This document shows, piece after piece, positions 15,275 to 41,260 of a stretch of DNA of 64,000 nucleotides. Made by a program: the position numbers and the translations under genes. A model generated the notes under the pieces. The model saw only the letters and a list, made by a program, of their open reading frames with translations, was not told where the DNA came from and did not search any database. The first letter of the stretch is position 1. Every line of letters begins with the position of its first letter. Location: the NCBI GenBank assembly GCA_017499595.2, contig CM039000.1:4030001-4094000 (forward strand), read 5' to 3'. The DNA comes from Psilocybe cubensis. Its lineage: Eukaryota.

Positions 15275-15490
15275 GCATCAGTAAAAGTACACCCTCTAGC
15301 GCTTGCGGGACAATCACTTGTGCTAGGACTTTCTCCCGCTTTTTCAACTTCTGCTTTCACTTTTGCGTCTTTTGCCTTTGTTTTTGGAAGCTTACTGCTT
15401 CTGTTGCATCTTTTTATACACTTTCACAAGTTCATTCACTTTAGTTAATTTCTCGTTGATAAAGCATCAAAAAAGGTCTTTTGGGGGTAT

Positions 15491-16155
15491 CTAAAAAGCT
15501 ATCTCATGTGCATGATGATCTACATACTTGTTAACATAGAAAGAACGAAATGAATCAAGAGATTTTGAAAAATCAAACTTGGTGTCGAGAGGAATAAAAT
15601 CCTTCCCAGCATCCCCAATCAAGTGTGCACCTCGATAAATAGAATCAAGATGAACCACGCTCATCCGCCGTCGTTGGCCATATCGCTGGTCGCGTCTCTC
15701 TAGGTCCGGTTTGACTTTCCACATTCTAGTAGTTGGACATGGCTTGTCTCCAATGTGTGAAAACCATTGGACCAACGCACACGGATACAAAGTACCTGCA
15801 TGTTTAAAAGAGAAGAAAAGAAATACACGTGCCACATGTAAACCAGCGAATCCATCCTTGTCAGAGTCCGAATTACCAATGAACACGCAGTCACGCCGTG
15901 CAGGACCTTTGTGCCACGACGGGGTTGAGCGAATCATTTCATAATAAAGACCATTGGATCCAGAAAGATCACTGGGTGCGAAGTAGATGGCGCGAGCAGA
16001 AGTAAATAGTCGAAAAGTGCAACCGGCGAGACTGGGAAGGGAATCATTGGTTTGGATATGTAACCGAAGGTCGGCATTGGCAGCAACAAGTTGGTCGTAA
16101 AGGAAGCGTTGAGTGAGCTCCGCCAGGCGTGGTTGTCTGACATGGAATGCGAATG
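15491..16155 (-). CDS. C-terminal part of the outer Plavaka transposase
   Basis: FAFHVRQPRL...SARAIYFAPSDLSGSNGLYYEMIRSTPSW...RRDCVF...YPCALVQWF...FYVNKYVDHHAHEIAF is the typical Plavaka C-terminal region. It joins in frame to ...VRGVPLAIEA at ~34693-34722. Confidence 0.88.
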
Positions 16156-16374
16156 CATCAGCAATACCGGGGCCAAGTAGGTAATGATCCGTAGTGATAC
16201 GTAATTCTGTAGTGCCCATAGTAACGGTCCCATTTGGGTAACACACACTGATGTACCTGTAGCTTGGTACCAACGTGACATGGTACTCTGTAGTGATCTG
16301 TATTGTAACGCGAGTGCTGTGTAGCGGCGTGTAGCATGCTTACCATGGTCCATACCCCTCTGTATACAACTGAC

Positions 16375-16455
16375 ATACAAATTGTAGCATACTACCACAG
16401 ATTTGTAGCATGCTACCACAGATTTGTAGCATGCTACCACAGATTTGTAGCACAT
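16375..16455. repeat. Subterminal 21-bp tandem repeat (AGATTTGTAGCATGCTACCAC, ~3.5 copies)
   Basis: Visible directly. Its core TGTAGCAT recurs inverted (ATGCTACA) near the right end at ~34562 and ~34630. Confidence 0.85.
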
Positions 16456-16679
16456 CATAACACACTGCAAATAGGTACAAAGGCATATATAGTATCCACT
16501 TTCATTTGTATAGTGTTGTGTGGCTATTCCTGCAAGTGCCAATATCACACTGAAAACCGAACCATTTTTGACTAAAATGGGCAATTTTAAAAATAGATAA
16601 TCTATGTTTGGATCGGACCAAACATGTTTCTATTAGTAGATGCATAACTATTAATACGTGACGATCTAAATATGGTATC

Positions 16680-17129
16680 TGTCAGGGCAACACTATAATC
16701 AGTGTGACAAGGCCACCAACAAAGATTAAGCAAGAGAGAGAGAGAGAGAGCAGAGGGAGAGTAAGAGAGCAAAGAGAGAATAAGAGAGTGAGAGAGATTC
16801 AATGGTTCTAAGAGATCACACCAATGATAGTGGATATCCTAAGAGATTGAAGCTGAAGCTACAGCTACCTACAAGTCCAGTATTTATACTTTACAGCTAT
16901 TCTAGAATATTCCCTACATTACATCATAAAGGAAGGTTAAAGAATAAAAGTGACATCATATAGAAAAAGGATGAGTAAGACTAGGAATCATATAGAATTT
17001 ACTAGAAAGAAGTGGAGCAAGAAGGCTGTGATGAAAGAAATAAACTATCTAATCAGATAATTGATAAGATAATGAAAGGATAAGATAATTCTGTGAAGAT
17101 AAAGAGGGGAAACTGGAGAAACCCTGACA
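16680..17129. mobile_element. Solo LTR (450 bp) of an LTR retrotransposon
   Basis: Begins TGTCAGGG and ends CCCTGACA, flanked by the 5-bp duplication GTATC (16675-16679 and 17130-17134). AT/purine-rich interior with a GA microsatellite and no coding region. Confidence 0.88.
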
Positions 17130-17175
17130 GTATCTTCTAATCCACACCCGGCAGCTGCCCCGCTCATTCACCCAA

Positions 17176-19917
17176 CTACCCTTCTGGACCGTAATCTAGT
17201 TCCTCCTGTGGGATAGAATGGAGAGTCATCCTATAAGGGTTGGGGGGGTTCTTCGTAGGCCTCATAATAGCACTGATTATGGAGATCTAAATGATGCAAA
17301 GAAAGAAATGAATAAAAAAAGATACACACCATCCTTCCTCAGCCACTTCCCTACATAAGCAAGCCAAGCGAGGACCTTGGTTCAAGGTATCCTTCTCTGC
17401 CTCTGCTGCAACCAACATGCAGGCATCATACCTCAGGGAGTACTCCTCTCCCTTGAATTCAATACCCGAACACGGACCACCTCTTGCAGGGTCAATCCCA
17501 TCCCTCCACTCCTCAAGACAGTTGTGGATCTACAGCAAAATGCTTGTTAGCAAGGCAGTGCCAATAGCAGGAGAGAAATCAGAACTACACAACTGGCCAC
17601 AAGCGCAAATGCTTTGTGGGGAAGCGATGTCTTGAAGAAATCCGTCTTTGTCTCCAGACCTTTGATGGGGACTGCAACCCCTTTTGTAGGATGGTAGAAG
17701 AAGTCCAGACAGATCTTCTTCACAAAAGGATGTCCAAATGGGACATCGTGATACTGGAAACAAATCAATGAGTGGTAAGCCAGGTAAAATGGACGGCGAA
17801 CTCACTCGGGTTTTGGCAACACTCCGGTGGTATTTACCATTGAGTAGCCAATATGCTACCCTGTCCTTGATGTATTCGATCTCCCCCATCTGATTTTCAA
17901 ACATATTGGGGTTCGCGGCGATGACCTCCGACGGGACTTCGAGGCCATACGCATTTTTGACCAGGGGTCTGATCATCGTCTTCAGTCTTCCCCGGAAGGT
18001 TGACGCGTAGACAAATGCCTAATGAGAACAGACACGTTAGTACGATATCCTTAAAAGAACACGCTAAAAATATACCGTTACGGCGGTATTCCTGTCTAGG
18101 AGCGTTTTTTTCTCTGCAAAGTTATGTAAACCAATTAACTAAAATCACAGAAGACAGAACTTACTATCAGGCAACACTTTATCCGTGTTCATTCTTTCAA
18201 ACACGGTTACTGCCATCTTCACACATCCATCGGCGACTAATAAGTGATTTTCCCGAGTGGGAAAGGGGACCTCCTCTACTACATACAGGCACATCAGTTT
18301 GCGTGCAATTTTGAGCACATCTTTCCAGTAACCAGTAAAGGATGCAACTGAATGCTTGGATACTTCCCTAGCAGAAGAAGTACTGGACTTCTTATGAGCG
18401 ATGTATGCCTCACCAAGCACCTCATCATCGTCAGATGCTTCGTTGTTCTCCCTTGTCAAACCTTGGGATACAGCTCCTTGCGAAACAGCCACCTTGCGCA
18501 ATGCCTCAGGGCGAGGTGGCTTGTTCGCCCGATTACGACGACGGTGTTCTTGAAGAACATCCTCTACTTCCACAACCTATATCAATAATACATTAGCTAG
18601 ACATTAAATACAGCAGAGAAATGATTACATGGGGGGAAGGCTGGCGGAGCAATGCCCTTGCTCTCCTCTCCTCTTCATCATCGGAAACTTCATCAACCAC
18701 TGTCAAACATAGGTGGTAAGCAAACACGACATAAAGGTGGAGTTAAACCAACGCTGGGCAGCAGGCTCTTCATCATCTTGACCCGCGTTGTCGTAACCTT
18801 CATCACCGTCGACATATTGGAGAGCTTCTTCATCCCCAATATTCTCTTCATCAATTCCTTGCATGCATTCGTCCCCTGATGCTTCCTCAGATCGCCTTTC
18901 ACCGTCACTATCCCCCTCTTCCTCCTCCTCATCTTCCTCCTGCTCTATGCCTTCGTAATCTTGTTGCTCCTCCTCGTCTTGATGGCTGATGCTAGCCTCT
19001 TGGTGGGCGTTATAGGCTGCTGGATGCACTGGCTGTTGTACGGGGGCATGTTGTGTTACAGGATGCACTGGTTGTTGTACGGGGGCATTGTAGTATTGGA
19101 CAGAATTCTCTGCCGCAGGGGCAGCGTAACGCTGAACAGGATTTGCTGCGTGTTGTACAGGGCGCGGGACAGGATGTGCTGCATGTTGTACGGGGCGCGG
19201 GACAGGATGTGCTGGCTGTTGTACCGGAGCAGCGGGGCGCTGGATGGGGGCAGTGGGTCTTTGGACAGCATGATCAAGCTCTGAGTGCTCCTGATTTCTC
19301 TGAGCTGCACGTTGGATCTGGACAGGAGGGGGGGCACCCTGAGATTGTCGTGGGCTTGGTTGGACTTGTTGGACATCCCAAGGAGCAACTGAAGGCGTTG
19401 GCCTTGGTTGCATTTGAATAGGGGGACCTACATGCGACACAACGGTAACCTAGACGTGCTTGGAAGATAGCAAATTTAAGATTAGAACAGTAGACTCACC
19501 CCATTGCGAGGTTTCTTCAAGGGAGGCGCCATCTCATTTTCAGGCATGGCGCTAGTATCCACATTGGCGGCCCTTGACTTCCTCTTCCCAGCCTTCTCGA
19601 AGTCAATAAAAATGATGTTAGATGTTTTCTCCTACCGAGCATTTACTCCACCAAGACCACGGGTGCTTCGGATAGGACGGCCATTGTGGTCTTTTTAATA
19701 AGGAGTTCAGTGAATCTCAACAAAGAAAATGCTAGTACAGACCTGCTTCAGGAGCCTGAGGTGGCTCGTTTTCTGCCACGGAGCTCGGACCCTGTTCAAC
19801 CTCTTGTCCTAGATGGATAAAACATTAAGTATGCGGATGTAATGAGGATATATAGATGATACCTTCAACCGTGGCATTGACAACCGCCTTTTTCTTTTTG
19901 GATCCTTTAGGTGGCAT
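17176..19917 (-). CDS. DUF6532-like accessory protein of the inner element (multi-exon, possibly frameshifted near the 3' end)
   Basis: Starts MPPKGSKKKK, then a Q/P-repeat and acidic region, then STFRGRLK...VKNAYGL...PFGHPFVKKICLDFF...ALVASC|IHNCLEEWRDG...FKGEEY. The C-terminal pattern resembles DUF6532. Confidence 0.65.
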
Positions 19918-20711
19918 ATTGGGCTGGTTTGACGGTTGTAATGCAGAAATAGAGACAAGGGGTGGTGAATTATGTCAAGCTACGATCCGGAGGTATGCGA
20001 AATTAGCCTCTTTTCAAAATTTAAGGCGACGGACATCAGTCAAAAATATATCGTGCCATATAGAAATTACAGGTACTGAAACAGTACCCCTATCTACTAC
20101 AATATATCACATATACATTATAGTCAGATTCCATGTCCTACTTAGAGTTAAGTAAAGTTACATCTCAGAGGGGAAAAGACTGCACCTATCATGATCGCGG
20201 ATTATCCTGAGAGTGCATTAGAATAGGTATTCCCCGACTAATGAGGGATACCCGTAGACGGGCGATTTCGAGCTGGGTTTCAAACAGAAGATCTTCATTG
20301 GATTTATATGCTCGCATAATGTTGTCCATATAACAACGTAGCTCTGCCTGAACTTCTAGACACCTCTGTTCAGTGAGTTGAAATTGGTCAAGAGCCTTTT
20401 TAACGGCCTCTATGCCTTGATTCTAGAGGAAGGTGGATTAAAACATGAAAATAGACCTAAAACGAAGAACTCTGCCTCTTCGGGTATGCTAGGGAGGCGG
20501 CGACTTTGAGGTTGCGAAGCGTTGTTGCTATTGGAATGGTTCATGATAAAGATAGGCAACAATTTGGTGTGGTGGTGGTGGCTTAAGTTCAAGACAATCA
20601 ACACATTACGAACCATTAGCACTGTTGATTGCCGAAATACACTTAAATAGAATGACATAAAACCCGTATATGTCTACAAGTCCGTGTTCGAGATACAAGT
20701 AATGCTGCACC

Positions 20712-23071
20712 CTACATATTTACAACTTTGACACCACGGGACGGGGGGAAGATTTGAATCAAAGATGTTGTCGGAAAAGTTGGGAATGTATCACCGCGTT
20801 TCATACGAGTAACAGGATATTTATGTACAACGCAAATATCCTTGTCTATTGATCGTATCCTGAATATAATCCCCATTGAATCGCCCTCAAGCGGTGTAAC
20901 AAAGTCGTCCTTTTTTACAGGATGAATTGGAAACAACACTGATTTCGGTAATGTCAGTGTACGTCCCAGTAATGCTAGGTGGGCAGTATCGTCGGTAAGG
21001 CTGAGAAGTTCCATCGCCACTTGATGGTCGCCCTTGGATTTGTCTACGACTTTTAATCGTAATCCTTTCAGCTTATCGTATTTCGTATCTAGCCAGTGAG
21101 CGACGGTTGAGGGTAGTTCTGCAATTTCCACCGCCGAGTGTACAGGTATTGCTGAATACGGATTCCATGCAGGAGACAGAAAACTTGCTACTGTGGACGG
21201 CATTGGAGTTGCTCCACCAGAAGGCCCGGGGTCTTGAGCGGAATTTATATGTTCTCGGTTGCTTGAAACAATGTCAGTAAGCACCTGACAGTCAACGAAT
21301 CAAGTGAAACCACATACTGTATAATTAAATGTGATATTTTAATACGTTCCACCCTCTGGTTACGAGCTTCCAGCTCAACGTCTGCAAAGCCGTCGGGGGT
21401 AGTGCTTTTAACGATGCCATAGTACCCCTTGAATGTATTATTCCCGACAACGATGACACTCAAACCTATATAGACGTCGTTGTGGTCTCTTTCTCCAAGC
21501 TTTGACGAATGACGCTTTCGCGGGCGAAGAGTAGCATGGGCAGGGGGGACGTAGAATATGACTGTGTGGATGGGCACAATGACCTGAAAAATGTGTTGAA
21601 CACTACTGAGACAAAGAGAATGACAGTTCACCTACTTCGCGTTCGTGCTCTGGGGCGATAATACAAACAGATCTTCCATCAAAGTCTGACACCCATCCAT
21701 GGAGATCTTTGTGATCCCCTTCAACGACTTCAACACTATCGCCTATCTGGAAAGCTGCACGTAGATCGTGTAGTGCAACTGCTTGTGTTATACCTTGGGA
21801 GGGGATGTGCACTTCCACCTCAGCGTCAGAAACACTCTTGACCGTTCCAAAAAGACCTAAGTATTCTCCACCAATAATTTTGACTCAATCATATTGTTTC
21901 AGTCGAGTCATGGAGATGGCTTTCGAGGCTTGCGCTAAGGTCTCCGTCGTTACAAATGGACACTCGCGAAATTGCTCCAACTCGGACGATGTTGGGAGGA
22001 CATTGGAAAGATATTTGAGATCGATGGCGTCGAAATCCGTGATAATAAATCCATCCTGGAATATCCTGTCGAGGTGCGATTTCTTGATGTTGTCCGGAGG
22101 TCTGGGGATAAGAACAACACTTTTCCGACCCTGGAATGTGAACACAAGGCCGGTAGCATTTGCGTAGGTCGTCCAAGCCTTACGCTTTCCAGCAACCTTG
22201 ACCCACAATTGGTCTTCAGGGCGTGAGGGTGGGGGATGAGATAGGATCTCCATACATCTCTCCGAGGATAGCCTAACTAAATGTGTCGGATTAAGCTCTC
22301 TAACGAGGCAGGCTAACGTATGCGCATGTTGCATTGATGGCGCCTCGACGTAGATTCTCCCAGGAATTGAGGATTGAGCGAAGACAGACCGGGCAAGGAT
22401 GATGGGAAATGTAGGGTTCGTTGACATCTGCATAATTTTGAAAGCGACGGCCTCTTCGCGTCCAACCTATCACTCATAAGGTGATCAATAAATGCTGACT
22501 GAAGACTTATATTATTTTTGCGTACCTTGCAACCTATTTCATACATGATATCAGTCGCGGAAGGCATATAATTATTATCACCAAGTCCTCCTGGTTGGGG
22601 ATTGCCATATTTCTGTATAAGTTCTCGTGAACTAGATGGCTCTATATCATTGTCAGGACAAATTTTCATGCGTGAAGGCAGAAGCATGGGCAACAAATCG
22701 CTCCATTCATCAGCGTTATCTGTATTTTGCATGGCATGATATAGCCGAGAGTGTGCAACACGTTCCTCATCCTCAGAGTATTCATCGTTATCATTCACTG
22801 TATGTCAGAACCCATTAGCATCAGTACATATTGAGCAGAATATATGTAAATTATTGGAACATACGTAGTTGGCCCCCTTCATAATCAAGCTCTTCCGAAC
22901 TTTCATCATCATCGGAAACCGCTGCTTCAATGTCTATGAAGGGATTAATGTCCTGATTTTTTGAGATCATAATTAAATTTCCCTGAAGTCAGTGATTAGA
23001 TGGAGGGTTGGATTAGTACACACTGTGTGGTTGCCTAGGCTGTCAAGTCGTCTGCGTTTATAACTAGACAT
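20712..23071 (-). pseudogene. Spt5-like (NGN + multiple KOW) transcription-elongation-factor homologue with a premature stop
   Basis: NPFIDIEAAVSDDDE; NGN-like EIGCK|VGREE...SVFAQSSIPGRIYVEAP; KOW-like VKIIGGEYLGLFGTV, FQIGDSVEVVEGDHKDLHGWV and IGLSVIVVGNNTFKGYYGIVK...VELEA; a GGATP..PAW remnant. In-frame TGA at 21885-21887. Confidence 0.8.
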
Positions 23072-23643
23072 TGTGGGTCTTAAAGACTGTTAATCGATGT
23101 TCATCTCACTTAATTTATCATCTTAACTTGTGATAATTTATTTTTAGATCTGATGTAAGGGGGCGTTTTTTTAACCAACTCGTGACTTCAGGACGGGAAA
23201 CCTACCCTAAAGAATCGCTCCGGAAATAGCGTGTTTCCAACTTGATTGTTTTTCTTTCCGTTCATCATAGCGTAGTACCCCTCCCCATAGATTTAACATA
23301 CATTCTAATAAAATAGACATAGACAATACTCTAGACACTCTATAATAGTTTTCGTTCAGTTAAAATTCATCTAGTTGAAAATTTGAGACACCAGAAAAAA
23401 ACACACAAAAAAAAGTAAGTACCCAAAGAAATAGAATGCAGGGTGAGACGTTGAAGTTTTGTAGTGCAAGCCCAGAAGATTTCCCCCGTTGCCCGACTCC
23501 AAGCTGAAGAAATTCTGGCGTTTCCCTTCGAAACGCAGGTCGTTCGTCAGACTCTGGAAAACATGTTGCCAGAGTTGCACCCACTCCGCGTAGGTCTTAA
23601 TTGGATTGCCATTTATGGTACTAATATCAAGTTTCTGTAGAGG

Positions 23644-26600
23644 ATGGTGGATTTCCTCCGACGATATGAGGACTTCACCTTTTTGAATTACGATGTTTCA
23701 TCATCGAGCATGCGAGCGGCCATCAAGTATAGGCAAAGCTTGGCTGCCCTTCAGAACAGCATCGTAGAGACACCCTGCGTAACCTCGGCTACATGGGAGC
23801 AGGCGGGTAGCTTATTTGCAGCATACCGTCTACTCGATCTCGTAGCGTTGTGGCCAGCAGCCTTTGGACCATCATTGCCGGTGACCGTGCCCCTGAATGA
23901 AATACAGGCCAGCACAGGAACTAAGGAAATATTTTCACGGTTCAAGGTATGCGATCATGAAGTCACTCAATGTTAATTCTTAATTTTCAAACAATTATTG
24001 TAGCTTGTAGATGACTTGAAGGACTGGCCGGCAATGCTCTGCTCTGCCAGGAAGCGCATCCTCAGAGCCGACTCTAAGTCGCACAGAAACATCAACACCC
24101 CTTCTATCAGTGACACGCCGTCATCCGCTTTCACCCAGGGCGGGCCCTCGGAATCAACGCTATTACTCTGTCTGGCGCGTAACCACTTCAAGGGTGTTGT
24201 GGGGAAAATAATCGGGAATGTGTACTGCGCCTCGCTACACTACCAAATCTTGTCAGGAATGCGCGGTATGAAGGACGATGAACACATTCTACCAGACATT
24301 CCAACGGACATGGCTACTCTTGCAAATCTCTAGTAAGTTTTCTTTCCTCTATTCATTGATACAATCTGCTCAACATACCCTAGTGCAAGCGGCCATCCTG
24401 ATGCTGCGTTGTTCCTCTCAGAGGTCACGCCATCTCATTTAAAAATTCCTCTGCATGTCGCCCTTTTCATATCCCCATCCTTCTTTTTGTGAATAAATCT
24501 TGGTATTCTAAGAAATGTGACCGGGAGCAGCTGCTTAAATTAGGTGTATCCACATCCTCCCAGTTTAACTTGGATTAACGCACTCCTTTAGGCCTCAAAA
24601 GCGCTCGGTAATTGTCGCCCCCGTGTTCTGCGTGAAGTGGAGATGGAAATTTGGAAAATCATTGCAGCGCAAAATTGCGACATCCAGTCAGCCTTATATA
24701 AACTTGTTATCTCAGACTGCTGGATGGAATGCGAGCGGGTAATTGCACAAGATCCCGCGTTTCACTTTTTCATATGTGTGTTCTACGTACTGTAACAAAA
24801 TAACAATTTAAACTAATAATTGGCCAGCGTCAACGAGCAGCGCCGAGGTTACAGCAAATTCTAACCTAGCAAGGCGCAGCACTGAACCACACGGTAAGTT
24901 ATAAGCAAAGTCTGCGTCAATTACATGATTTAAATCCGTTTAAAACAGCTCAACTTCAGACCGTTTCCCATCATGGTGAAAAAACCACCTGTGAAGGGTC
25001 CGACGCAGACGCGGAGGGTGACGATGATCACGAAGTGGACACGACGGAAATGGTCAGCATGGGTCAACGGGAGAACGGGGACAATACGGTCCCTACCTCA
25101 AATATACAGCCTCCGGAAGACACGTCTTCAGTGGCTGGCAAGGATGTCAGCATGGGTCAACAGGAGAACGGGGACAATACGGTCCCTACCTCAGATATAC
25201 AGCCTCCGGAAGACACATCTTCGGTGGCTGGCAAGGATGTGCCCACGGACGAGCAACCTGGTTTGCCGCGGAGTGATGATATTGGATCTGGTCTACTTCA
25301 GACTGAGAATACTGGGCCCTCAACTGCAGGGGATTGTGAGATGAACGTCGATCCGGAGCAAGCTGATGTCGACCATCAAATGGAGGATGGTCCACATACC
25401 AATGGTCCAGAAAATTTGGGAGACGGCGGGGCTGGACAAGGAGCTGAAGGGTCTTCTGACGAGGCAAATCGTATGTCGGAAGTTCACGAGGGCGAAAAGC
25501 AGGGGCAAGACGGAGAACGACCCGACGAGGAGAACCGAATGTCAGAAGATGGTGAGGAGGAAAGGCCAGACGACAGTTCGTCGGACAATGAGACCGAGAA
25601 GCAGGGGCAAGGGGATGTTCCACCAGTCCAGGAGGACAGAATGTCGGTCGATGGAGAGGGGGTAGGCCCAGAGCAAAACAATGATTCCTCAGACATGGAG
25701 AGGAATACATTGGAAGACAGCCAAGGCGAAAAGGAGGGGGAGAACGCACCTCCTGCTCCTCTTATTTTGAGGATTCCTCCTGTTTCCCAGATAAACAGGA
25801 GCAAAAACACCACGGCTGACTCCTCTCAGAAAGGGAAAGGGAAGGGCCGGCAGGGCCTTTCCAAGCGGCCTCCCAAACGCAAGCCGACGCAGGCTACCGA
25901 CACATTTGATTCGGACGACGACCTGTGTATTGATGTCGATCTGTACGACAGCAACACCACCCTTGATGTCGTCAGCACTCCGGAGAAGGTGTATGGCACC
26001 AAAGTTTGGTCCACCTACAACGGTCGTGGCCAACTTAAAAGTTTCTGCGTTGTTGCCCATGTAAGTCATTCTCGATATTGATTTTTTCGTCATTTATTTA
26101 TTCTCCAAACAAGAGTCAAGCCGACGTGGATCGTGTTGAAAGGGTTCTGGAATTGGTCAAGAGTGACTACGTCGATGGAGTTCCATTGCACATAGCACAT
26201 CCCGAAGAATCATGTTTTGCGGTATTCGACCGCAGCACCACGAAATCCATGTATCTGATGGAGTCTTTCTCTGAAAGGAACGTCGTCCTTATGTCTCCTT
26301 CTCAAGAGGAGTCTATTTCAACTTGCTCCGACGAGTTCTACAGCCAGGTACGTCGCCATATGGGTGATATGACGAGCACCAGGTCAATCCAAGGTGTGTT
26401 TCCTCTTCGATGTTTTGATTTTTCTTTCTGCGTCTCATGCTAATGGCCGTAACAGATATGTCGACCATGTCGTCTAACCCCATCGAGAGGATTAAGCGTG
26501 GGTCCCTCTCTCAGGTCATGGAAGCAGCGAGGATGAAAGGCAAAAGAGGAAAGATCCTCAATGCCCTCGACATCCCTTTACCTCATGCAGGCGCTCACTC

Positions 26601-28124
26601 TTTTGACTTGAGTACTGAGGCGGCTGCTCTTCGGGCTACATCTGGTAGCTGGAAGTATAGTACCCCCGTCCCATTTGGTGATATGTCGTGGGGACTCGTA
26701 GCTACAGAGGGGGCATTTTTAGATATCCATATCGATGCCAATGGTTTCTGTTCCTTCATCCAACCTCTTCATGGACTGAAGCTGTGGATTATCATGTATC
26801 CCAGACGGTTGGATGTTGACCTTTCTTCTGACCGCCGTGTATTTCTGGGAGACAAGCTGGATTACGGGAAACGCACCACCAAGACTGGATTTACGAGGCG
26901 ATTGTTCTCGATAACCAGTCAGAACTGTATGTGATTTTTGAATGTCCTACCCATTTGATTATATTGACGCTACTTTGAAAAACAGCTTCATGAGACCGAA
27001 TACTCTACATATGGCGTATTCTATCTCCTCAGTGGTTTGCCGTGGCGGACATTTTTACTCCTCCACTTCCTTCGAAGAAACCCTGACAGGAATCATTCAC
27101 TGTTTTACCGCTGGATACAGGGCAACGAATACGAATCATTCAACGTCCCGATTTTTCCTGCAGCAAACCATACATTGGTTCTACAAGGTTTTGGTTGAAG
27201 GTGACAGCGACCCAGAAGGTATGAGGTTTTTTACCGTTTCCTACAAGATATCTGATTCTTTTCTTCTATTTTCTCTCAGATTTTTATGAAATGTACCATG
27301 TCCCATTCTACAGTACGCAGTCCGGATACTCGAGCTTGATAGCTCTGTGCGTGTGCATGATCTTGGCAAATGCGCTCGACTACGAGACCTATCGAAATCC
27401 CGATCAGATGTTCTCCACCAAGACTTCGGCACAGTTAGACGCATGGATGCGGTGGGATACCAACAGCCTGAGCGACGAAGAGCGCAAGGCGTGCATTTTT
27501 GCCCGTGGCGAAGCCTTGGCTATTCTAGAGTGGCTATGTCATCGCACGAAGTCCATCCACTACATGATTGAGACGGACAAAAACAAGGATGCACAAAATA
27601 TCATGGCGACAGAAAAGTTCCATGAAATGATACTTTGCCGCTATGCCCGTATGATTCTAGCCTACGACGCAGAAGCCAAACATAACAACATTGGTGGTGC
27701 CCCTTGCTGTACCGACACCAGTTTGCTTTTTGTCCAGCTTCAGGGCGTCTGCAGCGGAGAATTGAACAAGGTTATATGTCGCAGTATCGACCAGCTTCCT
27801 CGTTCCTCGGTCCCAAAGATGCTCAATTTACCCGTAATCACTCTCATTGACTGTGATGCCTGTGCGGATTCCTCAACGCAATTGAGTAGGTGGACCAGTG
27901 TCTGCCTTTGGATATTGACTAACCACGTCACAAACTAGGAACTCCCAAGGAGATTCTGGAACTTGGTACGAGTGTGAGGGATAAACTGTATCTGGATGGC
28001 ATGAAAGTCAAGCTGGAGAGCACAAATCCGAGTACGTGTGTTCGATTATGCCTTTACGTCGCAAATGCTTATCTCTTCATCAGAATCAGAGTCTGTTCCG
28101 CCTTCTAAACGACGGCGACTTTGA
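23644..28124 (+). CDS. Large multi-exon JmjC-like 2OG/Fe(II) dioxygenase with an acidic linker; apparent frameshifts; 5' end uncertain
   Basis: WGLVATEGAFLDIHIDANGFCSFIQPLHGLKLW...EAIVL...FMRPNTLHMAY...GGHFY gives HxD...K...H cupin ligands. One-base frameshifts appear at ~24475 and ~26868. Ends PPSKRRRL. Confidence 0.7.
25053..25238 (+). repeat. 93-bp (31-aa) tandem duplication inside the JmjC-like gene
   Basis: Two copies start at 25053 and 25146 and differ at 4 positions. Confidence 0.9.
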
Positions 28125-31500: not shown

Positions 31501-31900
31501 CAATATTGTAGGCCATTCTGTCGTCGACATTCGTATTATTTTTCGCATTGTCGGAGAGACACCCAGTACTGTGTCTCCCGATATTACTAGAAGATTTCTC
31601 GCATACGTCCAACGTTTTGAGGTTTTAAATCAGCCACAGTCTCTAGGTTCTGCGATCCGTGGACCTTACCCAGAGCCAATAACCGGCATGTATAAATTAA
31701 AACGAAGTCAACGTACAGATAACACCATTATGGGTGGAATTTTACCATTGAATCAAATACGCTCCCTGGTTGATCTGGTCCCTCAGATGGGCGAGAAGGC
31801 AAGGCGAAGCCTTACTACACATAACAGTCATTCCACTAGCACCGAGTTCCGATTAAACAAATATTTTGACAAAGAACTCTATTTGGCCCTGTCATCATAA
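28596..31900 (+). CDS. Plavaka transposase of the inner element (multi-exon, apparently intact)
   Basis: N-terminal C2H2 finger (CPRC..F..HADVQNH), YYPFASKDEWEL, LFYRD, ISTDKT, DTPE, PEPLHHWHK, GFRHFKEGIS, QVTGREH, PKLE, DTTEHAHI and a terminal LNKYFDKELY. Confidence 0.92.
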
Positions 31901-32039
31901 CATATCCACCTCAGGAAACCCACAAAGTTTTCAATCCCTAATGCACATTGCCACTCAAATTATCACCCAACACGCCGGCCTCGTTGTACACAAAGACGAC
32001 TCGGATCAATATCAACAGCCGCTTCTCACCAGTCCCGCT

Positions 32040-32770
32040 TTCTCACACTGTATCATCGTCACCTACTGCATATCCCTCCATCCATCTCATCTCTGCAGAA
32101 TCAAGTCGTTCTCGCTCATCTTCCGCTCACCACCGCCCAAACTCCAAAGGATTCTTCCCAGAGTGCCTCTTCCTCTAAACAAAAATTCGCCTCCAGTCTT
32201 GTCGGTCCGTCCTGTCCTCAATTAGCGCCCATCTTGCCGGAGATACTCACTTTATTTTTTCAATTCCATTGCAGATTAAGCTGTCAGCACCTTATCTGAG
32301 ATCTGGCGCCCTCAAGACATTCCCTCCCTATTTCTACCCACTGAAGTCCTTTGAGGATTGAGGACATCTGGAAACATACTGCAGACAGCACTATGTTATC
32401 TCGAAGCCATTCGTCCCAAGGTTCCCAAAATTTGCAAGAGGAAAGCATTGGCCTCTCTCCCACAATCCATACCTGCCATGCCTCTGTATCATTACCTACT
32501 GAATACCCCTCCATCCGTCTCATTTCTGCAGAATCAAGTCGTTCTCACTCATCTATTCCACCCACCACTGCGCAAATTCCAAAGGATTCTTCCCAGAGCG
32601 CCTCTTCTTCTAAACAAAAATTTTTTTCAAGGCTTGCCGGTCCGTCCTGTCCTCAATTAGCGCCCACCTTGCCGGAGATACTCACTTTATTTTTTAAATT
32701 CCATTGCAGATCAAGCTGTCAGCACCTTGTCCGAGATCTGGCACCCTCAGGATATTCCTTCCGTGTTCCT
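32040..32770 (+). repeat. Partial tandem duplication of the 5' part of the cyclin gene
   Basis: ~32060-32330 matches ~32495-32770, including the intron GTCCGTCCTG...TTGCAG. ~32345-32460 matches ~32991-33110. Confidence 0.8.
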
Positions 32771-33584
32771 ACCCCCCGCCAAAGTAGGGGGTAGCTCTTT
32801 TCCTCCTACTCATTCCCGTCCAACTTCCAAGCAGATCTCTTCCGATTTGCAATCCATAGCGTCTCATACACATCCAATACATCCACACAACAGTCATCCC
32901 TCCGTATCCGGCCATAACCCTTCCCCGACCCTCTTGCTTGCCTCGGGCACCAAATCCGATCAGATATTACCCCTCAAGTCTTTTGTTTATAAAGTCCTTC
33001 GCCACTCAAGGACATCTAAAAACGTACTGCAGATAGCACTATGTTATCTAGAATCCATTCGTCCCAAGGTCCCACAGATTTTGCAAGAGGAAAACATCGG
33101 CATTTGCTCTTATGCTCAGCCCAAAAGCAGTATTCAGAAAGCTACCCCAGAAGAGCTGGCGATGGATGCTGAGCTTACTGCTCTTGAGAACTCCGGCAAG
33201 ATCAACATCATCAATAATTTCATTGACAATTCTATGCAAACATTCCGTGTTGCCGATTCTGGTTCACAAGATCTGGCTGAATCGTGCATCTATCCACAAG
33301 ACTCTCTGTCCAGCGTAGATGTGCAGGTCTCAACGGCTCCTCTTTCCACCACCCTTTCTTTGCCATCTCCCCTCCTGTGTCCCCGTAGAGCCTTTCTGGC
33401 ATCCCTCATCCTGGCCTCCAAATTTTCACAAGAAAAGTGTTATTCTAACCGTGCTTGGGCAAGGTTATCTGGTCTCCCACCTCGTGAAATTGGTCGCTGC
33501 GAACGTGCCCTCGCACAAGCCTTGCAATGGCGACTCTGGGTCGGCAAATGCGCCTTTGGTGAGAGTGCTGCAACTGCCACATAG
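32478..33584 (+). CDS. Pho85-type (Pcl/Clg1-like) cyclin carried by the inner element; start region looks damaged
   Basis: DQAVSTLSEIWHPQDIP...LKSFVYKVLRHSRTSKNVLQIALCYL...LLCPRRAFLASLILASKFSQEKCYSNRAWARLSGLPPREIGRCERAL..L.WRL is a cyclin box. The nearest ATG (~32478) is out of frame with exon 1. Confidence 0.8.
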
Positions 33585-33828
33585 TCTCAATAAGTTTCAA
33601 CTTTCACGACCGCGCCATGTAGTACGCATTCTCAATAATCACTCTTTTGCTTGCCACCACTACGCGCGCTCCTCCCGCATTCAGTTAGATAGGCATCTTC
33701 TTAGACTAGCCTAGAAAAATCTATAGAACTTTGTTTTACGTATACAGAACCCCTGAAGAATTTTTATACCCGCGAAGTTTGTTTTCAGCTTGAATTCCAA
33801 CTACGACAAAGTGAGCGTATCACACACC

Positions 33829-34379
33829 ATGCAAATCATCAGCTATGAGGAAATTTTACAAATCGAAGCAGAAGTATTGGCCCCTACTTTCCCAGATCTA
33901 ATACATCCTACAACTTTCCCAGAGGCCGCCTCACTTGCTTCTCAAAGACAGCAATACGACTTGGAAATGGCTCAGTTAGTTGAGCAGACCCAAAAAATGG
34001 TCCTTTTGACCGAGAACAGGCTGATACTGGCCATCCTGGCCCTTTTCAACGAAATTAACTGGACCACCCTGGACCCAAGGTTACTATCGTTGGCTAAAGC
34101 CAAGATTACCGAGGGTGACCAGTGGCTCAAAGCACGAGCCGTGAGTTTTCTGTTTCTTCAAGTTTCAAGTTGATACTCTTGCTTAAGATAACTAGGAGGA
34201 GACACTTCGGGATGCAGACTCAGGCAGCCCCGAGCACATATTGACCCAAGGGATGTCCATTATAGCCAACGGCCAGATTCATATTCGAACGGTAGAGGTG
34301 AGTCACAGTGATAACTACTTTGTTTCTACACTTTCTTAGTAATGGGCAGGATCTCATACGAGAATGTCAGGATCATTAA
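33829..34379 (+). CDS. Small helical hypothetical protein of the inner element
   Basis: ORF 33790..34173 followed by GTGAGT donors at 34141 and ~34298 and short downstream exons. Confidence 0.5.
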
Positions 34380-34692
34380 TAGGGTCAAGATACTACATTG
34401 TAAATAGACACTTAATTGCCTTTAAAAATGTACATTTTATTGCTTGATATGATTGAAGAGCTTTACTGAGACCAATCACATTGGACATCAAACTCTCCTA
34501 AGTCTGGAATCGTACATAGAGATAGCTAGGAAAATCCAAAGCTCGCAGTAGTAATGTTGGAATGCTACAGAGCTCAACGGAGCATCCCGCCGATGACACA
34601 TGACGCTATACTGTCTACAGCCCACTTTGATGCTACATCCGGTTGGCAGGACAATACGTTGAGTTACCTCCGAAAATCCGGATTTACTGATG

Positions 34693-37423
34693 TGCTTCAA
34701 TTGCCAGTGGAACACCACGTACTAAGGAAAAATTAATTGAATATATGCGCTAAAAAGGTTTAGGATAACATACCATGAGATTTTGCAAGTGTAATCTCAG
34801 ATTGCGATTCTGGCTCAAAAACCTCGCCACACTCTTCAGTTGACGCTCTCCTTGGTGGCTCGGGAGGTGTATCTTTCAATATAGTTACGGGAATGTGGGG
34901 CCCCGAGATACCATTCAGCATATTGTGTTCGGTAAAAAAGACCCTTGCCGCCAAAAGTTTCTCGACACGTTGATTTGTTACAAGCATTTGACCAAGTGCC
35001 TTATAGCGACTGGACCGCCGATAAGGTTTTTTGACAGCTTTGATGTGTTTGTTCTCTGTGATTGACGAGCAAAGACCGTTTGGTGCTCCAAAAAGTCGGA
35101 TTAACATAGGGTAATGAGCAAGGGAATGCTGCCGTGGGAGTGAAAATCCTTCAGGTCGCACATTCAGGTCTCGAAAAATTTCACGATGGCAATGAAAGCG
35201 TGATAAAGCGACCTCTATTTGATCCAGTGTATCGTCGTCGATGGCATTACGTCGCACCAGGTAACAGAAGTCAAGAAACGCGGCTACAGCCTGAACCATT
35301 TGGTCTGGAACATGGCCTGCAATAGCGGGCAAATACACCTGATAGATTCGGCTGAGATATCATAACTTTGGTTGGGGTTTTAATCACAAACCTTCATTAA
35401 ACCCTTTGAATCATCGCCAGTCCACTGTTTGAATCCGCGTCCTTGATGAAAGTGTTGAAGACCAGGAAAAGAAGGCGCAAGTACAATGCTACCAGGAAAA
35501 TTGATGTCAGCATTGAATCAGTGGCTCTAGGACCAGCCGGAAATATATACCGTCGATCAATATCAGCTAAAATCTTCTTTGCAATTGGCGGATCATGATG
35601 TTGATTGATGTACTGTGTGACCCAGTCCACCAAATGGTCTTTGAAGGTTCCTTTGATAATTTGATGAAGTAGATCGGGGGCGAGAAGTTCGTGTATATCA
35701 GCTCGGGGGAATGATGAAGTAAATGGCTAACAACAGGTCGTGGAGTTAGCAACACAATTTCCGAAACAGTATGCTGAAAATTTTACTCACAAATAAGTCG
35801 CCAACTATGCCATAATCATCCCACAATTCTATCAATGTACATCCGTCTACTAGGGCTTCTGTATGCACCTGTGATCGCCGAGGACTAGGTGCATCGAGGT
35901 TATCAGGATGAGATGTACATCTGCAATTTAAGATCATTAGCCACAAGCGGTAATTGTAATTTTGAATTAAAACCTGCCTTGGACACCATCCTTGAACAAT
36001 GCATGCAAGCAATGCTTGCTCAGGATAATCTGCAATGTAAGGGCCAATTCCATATATAATACGACGGTAATGGCCATCTCCACACATGGTTACACGTGGC
36101 GTAGACATGTAAGGCCGAAGCGATGATAAAATGTGTTCGAGAGACGTATGGAACAGTTGCCGGCGAAACTTGCGGAAGTCGGCTCTATCGCTGTATTCTT
36201 GTGATGCTTTAAAAGAGACCATGTAAGCCAACAAGTAAAATTAGTAACCGAGAGGAGCTTACTTTTGGGAATGGCCAGAAATCCGACCAGCGAGACTGCA
36301 TTTTTGTGAGCTCGTCGCATCTTGTTATGGATATTTCCTAATGACATGTAGAGAGGATAAAAATCATTTTGTCCCGTAGCTACAGACACTGTGGTCTTGT
36401 CGCTTCCGATGATGACCGGGCAGAACATGGATCCATGACATTTGATGTCTTGGGCGATTTTGTTCTGTACAAAAAACAATGATAAGAAAATAAGCACAAC
36501 AAAGAATAACAAGTCACGCACTGCCTGCAGCCATGCCCATTGTCCCGACATAAGATTCCGGTATCTGCGTTTACCATTCCAATAATATCGCTTTGGGGCA
36601 TAATCAATGTTTCCCACATAAGTTGGGTTGCCAATTTGTTGCTCTAGAACGTCAAGTGGATTGCGAAACCAAACTTCATATTTTTGTGTCATCCACTCGG
36701 GAATTGGACCATCTTTTGGTAGCTTGCCGTTGTAGGTTACAGAAAATGAGGTCCATGGAATGTTGCCTTGTTTGATGCTATCAATACAAGCATACATATC
36801 AGAGTGATTTGCAAACGGTGGGTCTTGATCAGGATAATTAGCACCTAAAATTTGTGACAGGCGATCTATCCTGCCTGCTGACATCTCCTCCTCGACAAAA
36901 AGAAATTCAGCCATTTCAAATTCTGTCCGAGTTGCAAAGGGTGTAAAGTCCTCCTTGTTGTGAGGCGCAGCAGGTTGTGGCTTTGTATTTGGGGGAAGAT
37001 AGTGACCCGCAGAATCACACGGTCTTCCTAGACATACATTAGCTATAATTTGTGAAAAAAAGAGCCTCGAAAACACCAACCATCAATTGTCGGGTGGGTA
37101 TCTATATGTGAAGTAGGCACTGGATTTGGACCACTCGGATTTGATTTTGGCGATCCAGATGGTGTTTGGCGAGGTGAGCGACGAGGCGAAAAGTTGTTAG
37201 ACCACGGCTGTGGACTTGGAGAGGGAGAACGAGAGGATGGTAATTGCGGCAAGAAAGACTGTGCATGCAGAAGTGCAGACTGCACGTCCAGAGCAGCAGG
37301 AGTAACATGTTTTCTGTCATAATGTTGTTGTATGCCCCATGATGTTGTCGAGGTTTTGAGACATCCACTGTATGAGCAATGAAACGTAGCTGCCCGGAAT
37401 TTCTTGCGAGTTCTTGAAGACAT
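34693..37423 (-). CDS. Plavaka transposase of the outer element, N-terminal and catalytic part, interrupted at 34692
   Basis: C2H2-like start (CSYSGC...QQHYDRKH), PFATRTEFEMAE, VWFRNP, GSDKTTVSVATGQ, CGDGHYRR..YGIGPYIADYPEQ, PDLLHQIIKG.FKDHL, SLPRQHSL.HY and APNGLCSSITENKHIKAVK. Confidence 0.92.
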
Positions 37424-37535
37424 GGAGGTTTTGAGTCAGTCGTGCAAAAAACTCAGCATCAGAATCAGTGTTACAGCGACACGGCGCTGCATGTCACACT
37501 GCATTTGATTTCTTACCGTCAAAGTACAACATACT

Positions 37536-38303
37536 ATGCCTCCATACAACGACTGGAATACTCTCGACGGATATGTATCCAATTCCGAGGAGGACAGGTC
37601 AGAAAATGGAAGTTTGGACTGGCATTACAACTACCAACAAGAACATGAAGAGGACAATTACTATATGCCTTTCAGACCCATGATCCCTCCTCTTTCGCCT
37701 CATCCCAAAATGAAAGCCAGCATGGATGCCATAGAAGTTTCGGATTACAAGGACGGAATTGCAACCATGGCGGAACAGGCATTTAAGGGGGAGTTTGAGC
37801 GTGTTGTACAGCTATCAGCAAATCCGAAGGTAAGTATATGAAGTCACACAGCCAGAGCGTTGAAAACTCACTATATGGCGCTTCAGTATAGCAAAAAAAA
37901 TCCACCCGTATTCAAAAGGCAGCATCCTGATGAGCCTGGAAGCTATGCACAGCTGCGCGCGGGCATGCAAGCCACCCAAATTGAGCAGACTATTTGTCTG
38001 TATCGCGCTATCCTGAATCAAAAACGAAAACGCCTCATTAAATATACAAAAAGTCCTCGCCTTTTTGAGTGCGTTATGCTCAATCACAAGGCGGGCAATG
38101 GCTCAAAACTCAGGATAGCATTGTCACCTATTCGGGCGGGAGTTCGAAGGGCGCATCTAGCTCAGGAAATTCGCATTTTTGAAATGATGATATTGCGAAG
38201 GAAGGCTTACTTATTGGGTCTGCTAAGCATTTCTCTAGGCGGCGGAGAAGCTAATGACCCCAAAATACGACGAGTCAACGGTCCTTGTTTAAATATTTTT
38301 TAA
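37536..38303 (+). CDS. Small hypothetical protein of the outer element, divergent from the transposase
   Basis: ORFs 37536..37841 and 37860..38303 are joinable by an intron (GTAAGT at ~37830). No domain recognised. Confidence 0.5.
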
Positions 38304-38426
38304 AAACTAGATTGCAATGTAACTATCATTAGTTTACAGCCAAAAGAATTACTAGATTGCTTGCCATGTCGGTGAACTTGAGCAAAAACATTGTTGCGAG
38401 TGCCATGTTTGAATGTTCAGCAACGA

Positions 38427-38503
38427 CCTGAAAAAAAAACAACGACAAATGCTACAACAAACCCATCTGAAAAAAAAACAACGACAAATGCTACAACAAA
38501 CCA
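38427..38503. repeat. ~39-bp tandem duplication (CTGAAAAAAAAAACAACGACAAATGCTACAACAAACC x2)
   Basis: Visible directly, just upstream of the ATG at 38573. Confidence 0.8.
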
Positions 38504-38572
38504 AACATGGTCTCTAAAATTTGAATCACTCACATTGCAAATGACATCCTCATATCTCAAAGCACCTTTCAG

Positions 38573-40908
38573 ATGCCGCCAAAAAAGGATGCAGTGGTTC
38601 TTTCAGGGCCTACTCGACGTTCATCTAGCAGAGTTGATGACACACCGGCGATAACTTTAGATGAGCCATCCCATTCTACTGCTGAGCAAGACACTGACCG
38701 TCGATTGACCCTTCGGGCTGTACGCAATTCGAACCCACGAATTGCAGATGCTCCACGACCGAAGCGAACATCAGAAGAAGTAGCAAAAGAAAAGAAAAAC
38801 CAACAAACCAAACAAAAAAGGGTTGTCTTGCTTCGCAAAGCTTTGATTCAAAAGGCAGCAGCTCTCGAGGACCAACTTCTTCAAGAGGAAGCCAACCTAA
38901 AGGATGACACATTCAACAATATGCAGGTAATACTCACATCCGATTTAAGAGTAACTCACTGTCTGAAAGCTCCTTTAAGTCTTTACCCGCTTCGGATTTA
39001 CTAGGTATGTCATAATGTTCAAGCTATACCGAGACTGATTTAAAATTAACAAGATCACGGTGGAAATGATGGAGTACCTTCAATGTCAGGGGACATATCG
39101 TCGAGTGGTGGTACTGAAGATGAGTATGTGGACAAGGATAATCAGGATGTTGAGTCTGAAGACTCAGACATCAATGACGGTGGAGGTTTGGACGATGATG
39201 CCGAGCTTTCTCAGGCAAAGTCCAAGGGAAGCCGAAAGGAAAAACGGGGAAAGCTTAGAGAGCAAGTTACGGCTTATCGATCATCTACTAATAAAAATCA
39301 AGAACCATCAGTGGGAAACAAAAGAAAAGGACGAGCATCACAGTCCAGGTGCGTACTTGGTCTCATCATTGTATGCATAAAAACTGAGAATATGTTCTCT
39401 AGAAAACCTGCAAAAATGAAGAAGTCTAACGTCTGTGGCATACGTGACGATTGGAATGAAGAAACGTACCAAGAGCACTTTGATCTCCTGCCCGGTGCAA
39501 ATCAAAACCTTCCTCCTAGCTCTAATGCTAGTGGAACCAGCGGAACAAGTGACATGGAAGTTAATGACGACGACGACGACGTAGAGGCAATAGATGGGAT
39601 TAGTGATGATGAAAGGGAAGTAGTAGAAAGGCGTGGAATTTTGGTTGCCAACACATTGGCAAATCCCCGTGGAAAGGTAGCGTATTACCTAATGCAGTTC
39701 TCTACGTTGACTGACTACTTTCTTTATCTCATTAGTCCTCTGTACCTTTAGCCAACCCTGCATATACTGGTCGCTCCTTGGCCAAAGTTGAGGCTACAAC
39801 ATCTGTACCAACATATATTCCATCAGCTTTGTTGGATGGAAGGCTCAAACGGAAGCAAGAAATCCGCGCCAAAGTTGACCTTCCATCTGAACTGAGGTTG
39901 TCCTACGATGAGAAATTTTCACCTATGCTTCGTGAACTAATTGGAATTATCAGTCCTTGGGAACGTCCATCAGAACAGCAGATATTGGATGTTTGGCATA
40001 AAGTATTTCCGGATGTACCGCTAGAGGGTTGGCTAAAGACTGTGGTAACCAAATTGGTGTGTCACTTATTATTTTGCATGGACCTTACTGACTACCGCAT
40101 AGGTAGAAAATAATATATATAACTGGCGTACAAAACTTGCTCAAACAGCATCAACATGCTTTGAGAGGTCAATCATTCCGGCAATGGAAGATTGGTCAAA
40201 ATCTGGAATTGCAGAATGGTGCAAATGGGCACTCTCGGGTGACTACAAGTGTCGTCCGTTCTACTACCTAAGCTATGAGGAGGGGGATGATCAGATTAAT
40301 GCGACAGTAGGTGTTTTCTGAGTTCTAGAATTGATAATTGTTTGCATTTTAACCAGAATCTTTTTTCTAATCAACCAGGGGATATTTCAGCACCCGCTCA
40401 TTTTATCAACACTTGCATACCATTACTCCAGCATATCCGCGATCCACTCTAGTGCCCGACGTGATGACAAACCAGTAGGCGCACTGATAATGGCCATTCA
40501 GGCGGTACGTGATATATAGCACTATTGCATACCATCACTGATATCAACTGCATCTGTTAGTCCCATCGTGCTATATCTCATTGGCTTACGGGCGAATATC
40601 AGAAGATCCAACGGCCATTGGGTGACTTCTCAAAAGACAACTGGGGGGATAATCTTACTCGGGATCCAAAGTACTACCCCACGCTATCACCCGGTTTGGT
40701 TCAAGAAAGCAAAGCTACGTCTAATCTACTGCGTGTAGTCAATAAGCTTACAGATAAGCGATGGGAAAAAATCATTCAGGGTGCTATGCAGGCTACACGT
40801 AGGCACAAGAGCATTACAATTCAGACGATTGCACCAGCAGCTCCTGATGCAGTCGAGGAACCTCTCTCCGATTTTTCTATTCTCGATAACAATAACGATA
40901 GTGATTAG
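38573..40908 (+). CDS. Accessory protein of the outer element (basic/acidic N-terminus, DUF6532-like C-terminus)
   Basis: Multi-exon: MPPKKD...; SPWERP..ILDVWHKVFP; GIFQHPLILSTLAYH...KPVGALIMAIQA|SHRAISHWLTGEY...FSKDNWGD. Layout parallels 17176..19917. Confidence 0.65.
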
Positions 40909-41260
40909 ATTACTAACTAGTTTAAGCAGCTCAAATTCATACTTTTGAAAAAAAAATTGTCGTCATGAAAGATCTTAAAAGCTTTCCTTAAGATGTATAG
41001 CTTACTCATAGTGTGGTATCTTTTGGGCACACTTTTGCCACTTTTCGGTCTTTCGAAAGATCAAACCACTTGTGCATGGAAATGGGGTCTGGCTTGCAGC
41101 AAGCCCAAATACTTTCGCACTTTCGGCACTTTCATCACTTTAGAAAGCAATGAAAGTGCCCGAAAGTGGGGGTGCAGTTTTACTGATGGGTACGTGTTCT
41201 TCGTGTAAACACGGACTTGCACACCTTTAATTATGCATACTCATTCCCCTTTTTCTATAG

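Follow-up and report, generated by a model that had tools for sequence, protein, structure and literature searches.

The stretch analysed here, called the window, comprises 64,000 nucleotides of Psilocybe cubensis (assembly GCA_017499595.2, contig CM039000.1, positions 4,030,001 to 4,094,000 of the forward strand); all positions below are counted from its first letter. It contains a composite of 25,913 bp (15276-41188), in which a solo long terminal repeat (LTR) is enclosed by a Plavaka-type DNA transposon, which in turn is enclosed by a second Plavaka-type element inserted into a weakly forkhead-like gene (Table 1). The outer element begins with CATCAGTAAAAGT at 15276, ends with the reverse complement of CATCAGTAAAACT at 41188 and carries GG on both sides. 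It is split at 16155/16156 by the inner element, which spans 18,537 bp (16156-34692) from CATCAGCAATACCGG to the reverse complement of CATCAGTAAATCCGG and is bordered by TG on both sides; without the inner element and one TG the outer element measures 7,374 bp. All four transposon ends read CATCAG inward. The solo LTR (16680-17129, 450 bp, TGTCAGGG...CCCTGACA) is flanked by two copies of GTATC. A BLAST search of the window revealed no second copy of the LTR or of the four element ends. Loose ends of contigs and reads are found at 16155/16156, 34693, 16678-16680 and 17129-17131, that is, at the borders given here. The three insertions with intact GG, TG and GTATC duplications that had been proposed from the sequence alone are thus all present at the proposed coordinates, each with an empty site described below, and the three-layer nest is confirmed as real, precise and recent.

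Table 1. Features of the nested locus, with strand and supporting evidence (positions within the window; PlavakaB-like denotes the proposed assignment).
Feature	Position	Strand	Evidence
Target gene, last part in open frame, weakly forkhead-like	14753..15275	+	Pfam Forkhead E 0.0099, 16.4 bits, below cut-off
Left GG target duplication of outer element	15274..15275	.	Paralogous empty site has a single GG
Outer PlavakaB-like element, left arm, 880 bp, terminus CATCAGTAAAAGT	15276..16155	-	X6 contig piece begins exactly at 15276
Outer transposase, last 221 codons and stop, ending ...HHAHEIAF	15491..16155	-	Aligns to C-termini of P0004, P0006, P0242
Left TG target duplication of inner element	16154..16155	.	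Joint 16153->34693, ends TG..TG
Inner PlavakaB-like element, 18,537 bp, family of ~9-14 copies	16156..34692	+	Termini; loose ends 16155/16156 and 34693; family versus flank depth
Three tandem palindrome copies GTAGCATGCTAC, 21-bp period, near inner left end	16384..16437	.	3 found versus 0.12 expected
Left GTATC duplication of LTR	16675..16679	.	Joint 16674->17130
Solo LTR, 450 bp, TG..CA ends, 8-bp inverted terminal repeat	16680..17129	- (probable orientation)	High depth, loose ends at both borders
Right GTATC duplication of LTR	17130..17134	.	Sequence reading
DUF6532-matching frame, within a minus-strand frame run from ~17530 to 19449	17530..18018	-	Pfam E 7.4e-05, 23.2 bits versus cut-off 24
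SPT5-like cargo gene	20712..22804	-	Pfam Spt5-NGN, KOW2_Spt5, KOW5_SPT5, KOW
Plus-strand run of open frames, ~1,000 codons, upstream of inner transposase	24870..27938	+	0 Pfam families
Inner transposase, Plavaka and DUF6830, apparently intact	28755..31900	+	Pfam; P0121
Right TG duplication of inner element	34693..34694	.	Sequence reading and joint
Outer element, right arm, 6,494 bp	34695..41188	-	0.80-0.87 of sampled words present in runs X5-X8
Outer transposase, first part, Plavaka domain; exons parted by short gaps read as introns	34695..37423	-	Pfam; tblastn of P0001, P0004 and others
Outer second gene, DUF6532, transcribed away from transposase	38573..40905	+	P0241 maps here
Three copies of GAAAGTGC near outer right end	41117..41159	.	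Clustering
Right GG duplication, then intron donor of target gene	41189..41190	.	Sequence reading
Paralogous target-gene fragment without insertion, serving as empty site	55967..56320	+	Same window

Since a two-base duplication matches by chance in 1 of 16 cases for each element, the empty sites carry the weight of the evidence and each layer was compared with one. For the outer element, the fragment at 55967-56320 is 92% identical to the left 185 bp and 80% identical to the right 172 bp of the interrupted gene and possesses a single GG. For the inner layers, contigs or reads of four sequencing runs (X1, X5, X6 and X10) were compared with window positions 15000-34999. A joint from 16153 to 34693, which skips 18,539 bases and ends in TG on either side, was found in three of the four runs, supported by one contig of 4,173 nt in X5, one of 2,068 nt in X6 and 24 raw reads with 18 different starts in X10; it was not found in X1, which may be the run from which the window was assembled. 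As the third base (C) also matches on both sides of the inner element, this joint alone is compatible with a 3-bp duplication, and we favour 2 bp since the termini are then symmetric. The LTR-free joint from 16674 to 17130 (455 bases skipped, i.e. 450 plus 5) is shared by all four runs, with a depth equal to that of the inner family as a whole. Another joint, from 15275 back by 185 bases to 15091, was seen in X5 and X6 and could stem from a contig running through the empty site into the paralogue at 55967.

The uninterrupted 7.4-kb form of the outer element, for which a search had been proposed, is therefore present in X5, X6 and X10. In X6 the contig piece carrying it stops exactly at 15276 and continues with 348 further letters that do not match the left flank in the window. 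The uninterrupted element consequently lies in a different context in X6, and copies of the outer family have occupied more than one site.

The inner element is located within the coding sequence of the outer transposase, between IEA and FAF, as the sequence-only reading had it. With the insert removed, the minus-strand frame reads ...VRGVPLAIE-A-FAFHVRQPRLAELTQ... (A | FAFHVRQ) without a shift, the TG duplication lying inside the alanine codon. The outer transposase is recognised by PF18759 on three frames (E 3.4e-58, 1.8e-36 and 4.2e-16), and tblastn with P0001, P0004 and others showed no stop within its exon pieces. When nine homologues were aligned to the restored element, five (P0004, P0006, P0007, P0014 and P0025) crossed the junction in one in-frame piece. 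As to the other four, P0001 represents the truncated gene model of this very locus, the short models P0002 and P0003 stop before the junction is reached, and the piece of P0011 begins 6 bases past it. P0004 aligned over residues 8-965 with neither a gap at the junction nor a stop in an exon and ended at the shared C-terminus HHAHEIAF; likewise, P0006 ran through the junction ungapped, and its exon pieces were free of stops. P0242, a Psilocybe cubensis paralogue recorded on a contig that differs in length from that of P0001, reads ...PLEITAFAFHV... at this place and is identical in 211 of 236 positions, again without a gap. The spliced transposase thus aligns across the junction to its homologues, including one of the same species, which is the outcome that nesting demands.

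The public gene model P0001 (719 amino acids) ends in ...PLAIEAHQ*, a read-through into the inner terminus CATCAGTAA. Given its 92% identity it was considered as a second copy of the outer family; this was rejected, as the ending IEAHQ* is the junction of the present locus. The public annotation, possibly of the same assembly, therefore contains the same junction.

Next to the transposase, the outer element carries a second gene in the opposite orientation. P0241 (648 amino acids) is the only match for it among 1.84 billion representatives, and DUF6532 was detected in it with 28 bits (cut-off 24). DUF6830 was absent from the C-terminal pieces of the outer transposase even at E values up to 1. 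The repeat GAAAGTGC is not above chance in the window as a whole, with 4 occurrences versus 2.2 expected and 19 of 100 shuffles reaching 4, and only its clustering near the right end is noted here.

The inner transposase was assigned by PF18759 on two frames (E 5.9e-64 and 2.7e-16). P0121 (996 amino acids) aligns with 28755-29144 and 29198-31897; there are 4 mismatches, and two in-frame gaps are read as introns. These introns, at 29500-29545 and at about 31474-31530, have lengths that are multiples of three and each contains an in-frame stop, so that a plain scan for open reading frames makes this gene look broken. A nonsense mutation at 29516-29518 was considered and rejected, since P0121 skips that stop as an in-frame gap. 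Judged from these alignments, the inner transposase looks intact. A DUF6532 gene is found in both Plavaka elements (38573-40905, plus strand, and 17530-18018, minus strand) and points away from the transposase in each, despite a transposase identity of only about 30%. By analogy with TnpA of En/Spm, PlavakaB elements may regularly carry DUF6532 as their second gene. Direct repeats of 220-290 bp with 81-90% identity occur towards the right end of the inner element (32048-33101), paired as 32048-32339 with 32484-32774 and 32344-32433 with 32992-33081. At 23149-23273 the window copy departs from most members of the inner family in all four runs, with an opposite-strand joint at family depth; together with loose ends at 23149/23150 this marks a small rearrangement of the spacer that separates the SPT5-like gene from the orphan gene.

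Sequencing depth separates the layers clearly. Raw-read depth in X10 was about 60 in the flank bin compared to about 500-600 in the inner element, roughly nine-fold. In X1, a 986-nt contig (15200-16185) was unbranched with a depth of 45.6, compared to 494-661 for the contigs of the inner element. These depths mark the inner family as multi-copy and the outer left arm as single-copy in X1, the likely source run.

The outer copy differed from the uninterrupted copies at 4 of 715 compared bases in X5 and at 5 of 1,185 in X6. Between the compared window stretch and the X1 contigs 58 differences were counted, among them 23 A>G and 18 T>C. Within the inner element, 23 of 36 listed differences fall on sites where most of the family has CpG and the window has TpG or CpA. 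Such CpG changes would be the expected mark of methylated-cytosine decay in this presumably silenced copy. As an observation on the copy itself, the inner element of the window (17361-33860) departs from the family majority mostly by G>A and C>T. The letters private to the window occur in X10 in a few per 100 reads at most sites and in 0 of 589 reads at 20212. By these divergences, all layers can be taken as young.

The LTR shows the typical end features, namely TG..CA, a short inverted repeat and the GTATC duplication, together with the LTR-free form in all four runs. At its left border 975 reads of X10 continue into one conserved adjoining sequence (agreement 0.9) and 938 into varied sequence. 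At the right border, 2,179 reads gave a consensus agreement of 0.65, and the reverse complement is purine-rich beside the LTR. Neither an interior coding sequence of the gag-pol type nor a full-length retrotransposon with this LTR was seen in the run reads or in the window. The adjoining sequences in the reads hint at a pairing of this repeat around an interior, and the solo LTR would derive from a complete LTR element.

Taken together, the locus is very probably the result of three successive insertions that have since remained in place as a static stack. Boundaries, duplications, empty sites, the restored reading frame and copy numbers were read directly; the events behind them may be pictured as follows. 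An autonomous cut-and-paste PlavakaB-like element of 7.4 kb, whose transposase and DUF6532 genes are transcribed away from each other, would have entered the forkhead-like gene where an exon meets an intron, with duplication of GG. A member of another PlavakaB-like family, multi-copy and about 18 kb long, whose cargo would consist of the DUF6830 transposase, one DUF6532-like and one SPT5-like gene as well as a large orphan gene, would then have entered the alanine codon (...PLAIE-A-FAFHV...) and duplicated TG. Finally, an LTR retrotransposon would have inserted 520 bp inside the inner left end and duplicated GTATC; recombination of its two LTRs with each other would later have left only the solo LTR. 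Because the second insertion cut off the last 221 codons, the outer copy could from then on be moved only by a transposase of its own family supplied by another copy. The proposal that it became non-autonomous agrees with the transposase gene no longer being contiguous, as 18.5 kb now separate its last 221 codons from the rest while both termini are intact, and we infer this loss of autonomy from the gene structure. The composite has presumably not moved since it was formed.

Several points weigh against this account. The loss of outer transposase function is deduced from sequence only. In X5, X6 and X10 the composite could not be read from the compared contigs and reads, and its junctions have no clearly independent confirmation, since the window may derive from X1-X4 and its assembly may also have yielded P0001. 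The lack of an uninterrupted copy in X1 is a weak argument because contigs show presence, not absence. The LTR nature of the innermost layer relies on its ends, the 5-bp duplication, its copy number and the conserved adjoining sequence in the reads.

One rival reading is an assembly artefact, in which a multi-copy repeat of 18.5 kb was misplaced inside a single-copy element. The inner element is high-copy, and the supporting X1 contig extends just 30 bases into it. Such an error would, however, have to produce a perfect 2-bp duplication exactly at the termini of the inner family and an insert whose removal restores the frame precisely; the inner copy moreover has private changes and a private LTR, and the public gene model crosses the same junction. 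We regard a misassembly as scarcely credible. Of the ordered history suggested by the sequence-only reading, the part stating which layer entered which is fixed by the nesting itself, whereas the timing of the LTR relative to the arrival of the inner element is not. The LTR could have entered, and perhaps collapsed in, the inner copy elsewhere, which then moved into the outer element with the LTR on board. Cut-and-paste elements carry their contents along, the LTR is set 520 bp in from the left end, on the far side of the palindromes near the terminus, and the window holds no signal that dates the LTR against the TG duplication. No other inner-family copy with the LTR was detected, and the LTR-free joint appears at full family depth in four of four runs; this depth would be expected under either order if the LTR-bearing copy was never duplicated. 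We consider the earlier entry of the LTR unlikely.

Two further possibilities concern movement of the composite as a unit. It had been suggested that the inner transposase mobilises the whole 25.9 kb by acting on the outer ends through the shared CATCAG. This motif is common to all four ends, the inner right end and both outer ends share the first 10 bases CATCAGTAAA, and the inner transposase looks intact in a family with about 9-14 copies present. The likeness of the ends is, however, general: CATCA..TGATG termini are common to the PlavakaB families, and consensus sequences from other fungi also begin with CATCAG (PMC12730594). After the first 10 bases the ends no longer resemble each other, and each family has subterminal repeats of its own, GTAGCATGCTAC in the inner and GAAAGTGC in the outer element, the latter subject to the lack of enrichment mentioned above. 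Only 140 and 87 residues of the two transposases align, with 29% and 31% identity, and tblastx of the non-transposase parts of the inner element versus the outer right arm gave 0 hits. Nor was a second locus of the composite seen in X1: the outer left arm and flank lie on the one single-copy contig described above, and the protein cluster of the truncated model ending in IEAHQ* has 1 member on 1 contig. Co-mobilisation by the inner transposase did not hold up against these data and appears extremely improbable. Alternatively, the composite could have formed elsewhere and arrived whole by the transposase of an intact 7.4-kb copy of the outer family, for example from the other nucleus of a dikaryon; the GG duplication would in that case be younger than the TG duplication. 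Intact uninterrupted copies with 99.4-99.6% identity are present in other runs, the one in X6 has a left flank unlike that of the window, and the composite keeps both outer ends along with the subterminal regions. Large hAT derivatives that contain nested insertions can remain mobile if a transposase acts on them in trans (PMC3260210). Neither a second composite nor a donor site was seen, this route requires an assumption that the simple order can do without, and nothing in the window separates the two orders; arrival as a unit is accordingly very unlikely in our judgement. Were it true, the mobility of the composite might even explain how the stack came to its present locus. The view that the composite constitutes a new non-autonomous giant of the outer family, and thereby a first step in the growth of PlavakaB giants by nesting, is likewise very unlikely. 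Because the outer ends are kept and intact 7.4-kb copies of about 99.5% identity exist in other strains, a cross or a dikaryon could supply a matching transposase and move the whole stack. Stepwise insertion at the present site thus remains the preferred reading.

The gene hit by the outer element is interrupted at its exon/intron border AAG|GTACGT, where the protein reads ...GWK | ESIRNTLTQYQMFYK... (14753-15275 and 41189-41260). Forkhead atlas clusters were obtained at 0.84-0.87, and Pfam Forkhead reached 16.4 and 20.7 bits, below the cut-off; the forkhead assignment is taken as a lead only. When the open frame of this gene was compared with PDB sequences, a single match at chance level resulted. 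For the window as a whole, which is fungal, the closest named proteins come from Psilocybe cubensis and other gilled mushrooms. Paralogues of the target gene occur in the window at 10327-10728 (minus strand, recognisable at the protein level) and at 55967-56320 (plus strand), the latter a 357-bp fragment with a stop codon.

The surroundings contain further mobile and host sequences. A transposon of another kind is indicated at 45503-47750 (minus strand) by a KDZ transposase domain (E 6.7e-38) and a CxC2 cysteine cluster (E 5.1e-16). At 9185-9541 (plus strand), Mating_N, the N-terminal domain of mating-type protein beta 1, was matched with 21.3 bits against a cut-off of 21.4, a borderline value; if the match is real, this transposon-rich stretch lies near a homeodomain mating-type gene. 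To the right of the composite, at 42797-43000, about 17 tandem units of 12 bp (TTTGGCGAAGGG and variants) are found in the frame 42097-43158 (minus strand), for which there was no family match. At 62452-63195 (minus strand) a pro-kumamolisin activation domain on two adjacent frames belongs to part of a sedolisin-type protease gene, which appears to be an ordinary host gene.

PlavakaB elements of Agaricomycetes are described in the available text of Kojima 2025 (PMC12730594) with CATCA..TGATG termini and target duplications of 2-3 bp; as the consensus of PlavakaB-1_GyCo given there exceeds 24 kb, very large PlavakaB elements are already on record. Both layers of the nest resemble them in the PF18759 transposase, the CATCA..TGATG termini and a 2-bp duplication. 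With these three of four defining features, clade placement excepted, both can probably be assigned to PlavakaB. They differ in their cargo, which here consists of SPT5-like and DUF6532 genes and not of a TET/JBP dioxygenase. A Plavaka family in Marasmius is merely named in the portion of PMC9674265 available to us. Listings of papers on transposons of Psilocybe cubensis and on nested CACTA insertions showed no entry bearing on the present locus. The supplement of PMC12730594, in its accessible part, contains no Psilocybe family, and our literature search found no paper naming both 'Plavaka' and 'Psilocybe'; therefore both families are probably undescribed in print.

The locus offers a clean and datable case of a large PlavakaB-like element that was active recently: other sequenced strains have the same outer element free of the 18.5-kb insertion. 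Here a member of one transposon family has disabled a copy belonging to a second family, and the nest accounts for the public gene model that is cut short within a transposon terminus. To our knowledge, no transposition test exists for Plavaka, and the intact 7.4-kb, broken 25.9-kb and intact 18-kb elements would be natural material for a first one; the nest also lends itself to teaching.

Among known systems, the outer copy may be compared with the transition from En/Spm to dSpm, in which an autonomous CACTA-type element becomes non-autonomous, keeps both ends and depends on the transposase of another copy. Recognition of En/Spm involves family-specific subterminal repeats, and dSpm elements arise mostly by internal deletion. 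The outer copy likewise keeps both ends and would need transposase from another copy, with the difference that an insertion and not a deletion is responsible here. In Ac/Ds macrotransposons, neighbouring ends of one family are used by one transposase. Similar to these, several related ends lie close together in the nest and alternative end pairs are possible in principle; in contrast, the families here are distant (about 30% identity) and no product of alternative ends was seen. Macrotransposons and double Ds are mentioned in the accessible text on maize by Du et al. 2011 (PMC3260210), which also reports Ds-l4 inside Ds-l3-15 and LTR retrotransposons inside Ds-like elements. There, too, one DNA transposon encloses a second one as well as LTR material, every insertion has a target duplication of its own, and size grows by nesting. 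The maize elements belong to hAT and to another kingdom, compared to the CACTA-related Plavaka in a fungus; moreover, the insertion here lies within the coding sequence of a copy that was otherwise intact and autonomous, and whose pre-insertion form persists in other strains. Nested insertions, insertion-defective elements and very large PlavakaB elements are all on record. The locus shows no new mechanism; nesting and the mobilisation of enlarged elements in trans are well known in plants, and the nest of Psilocybe cubensis is of an ordinary kind that is unusually well documented.

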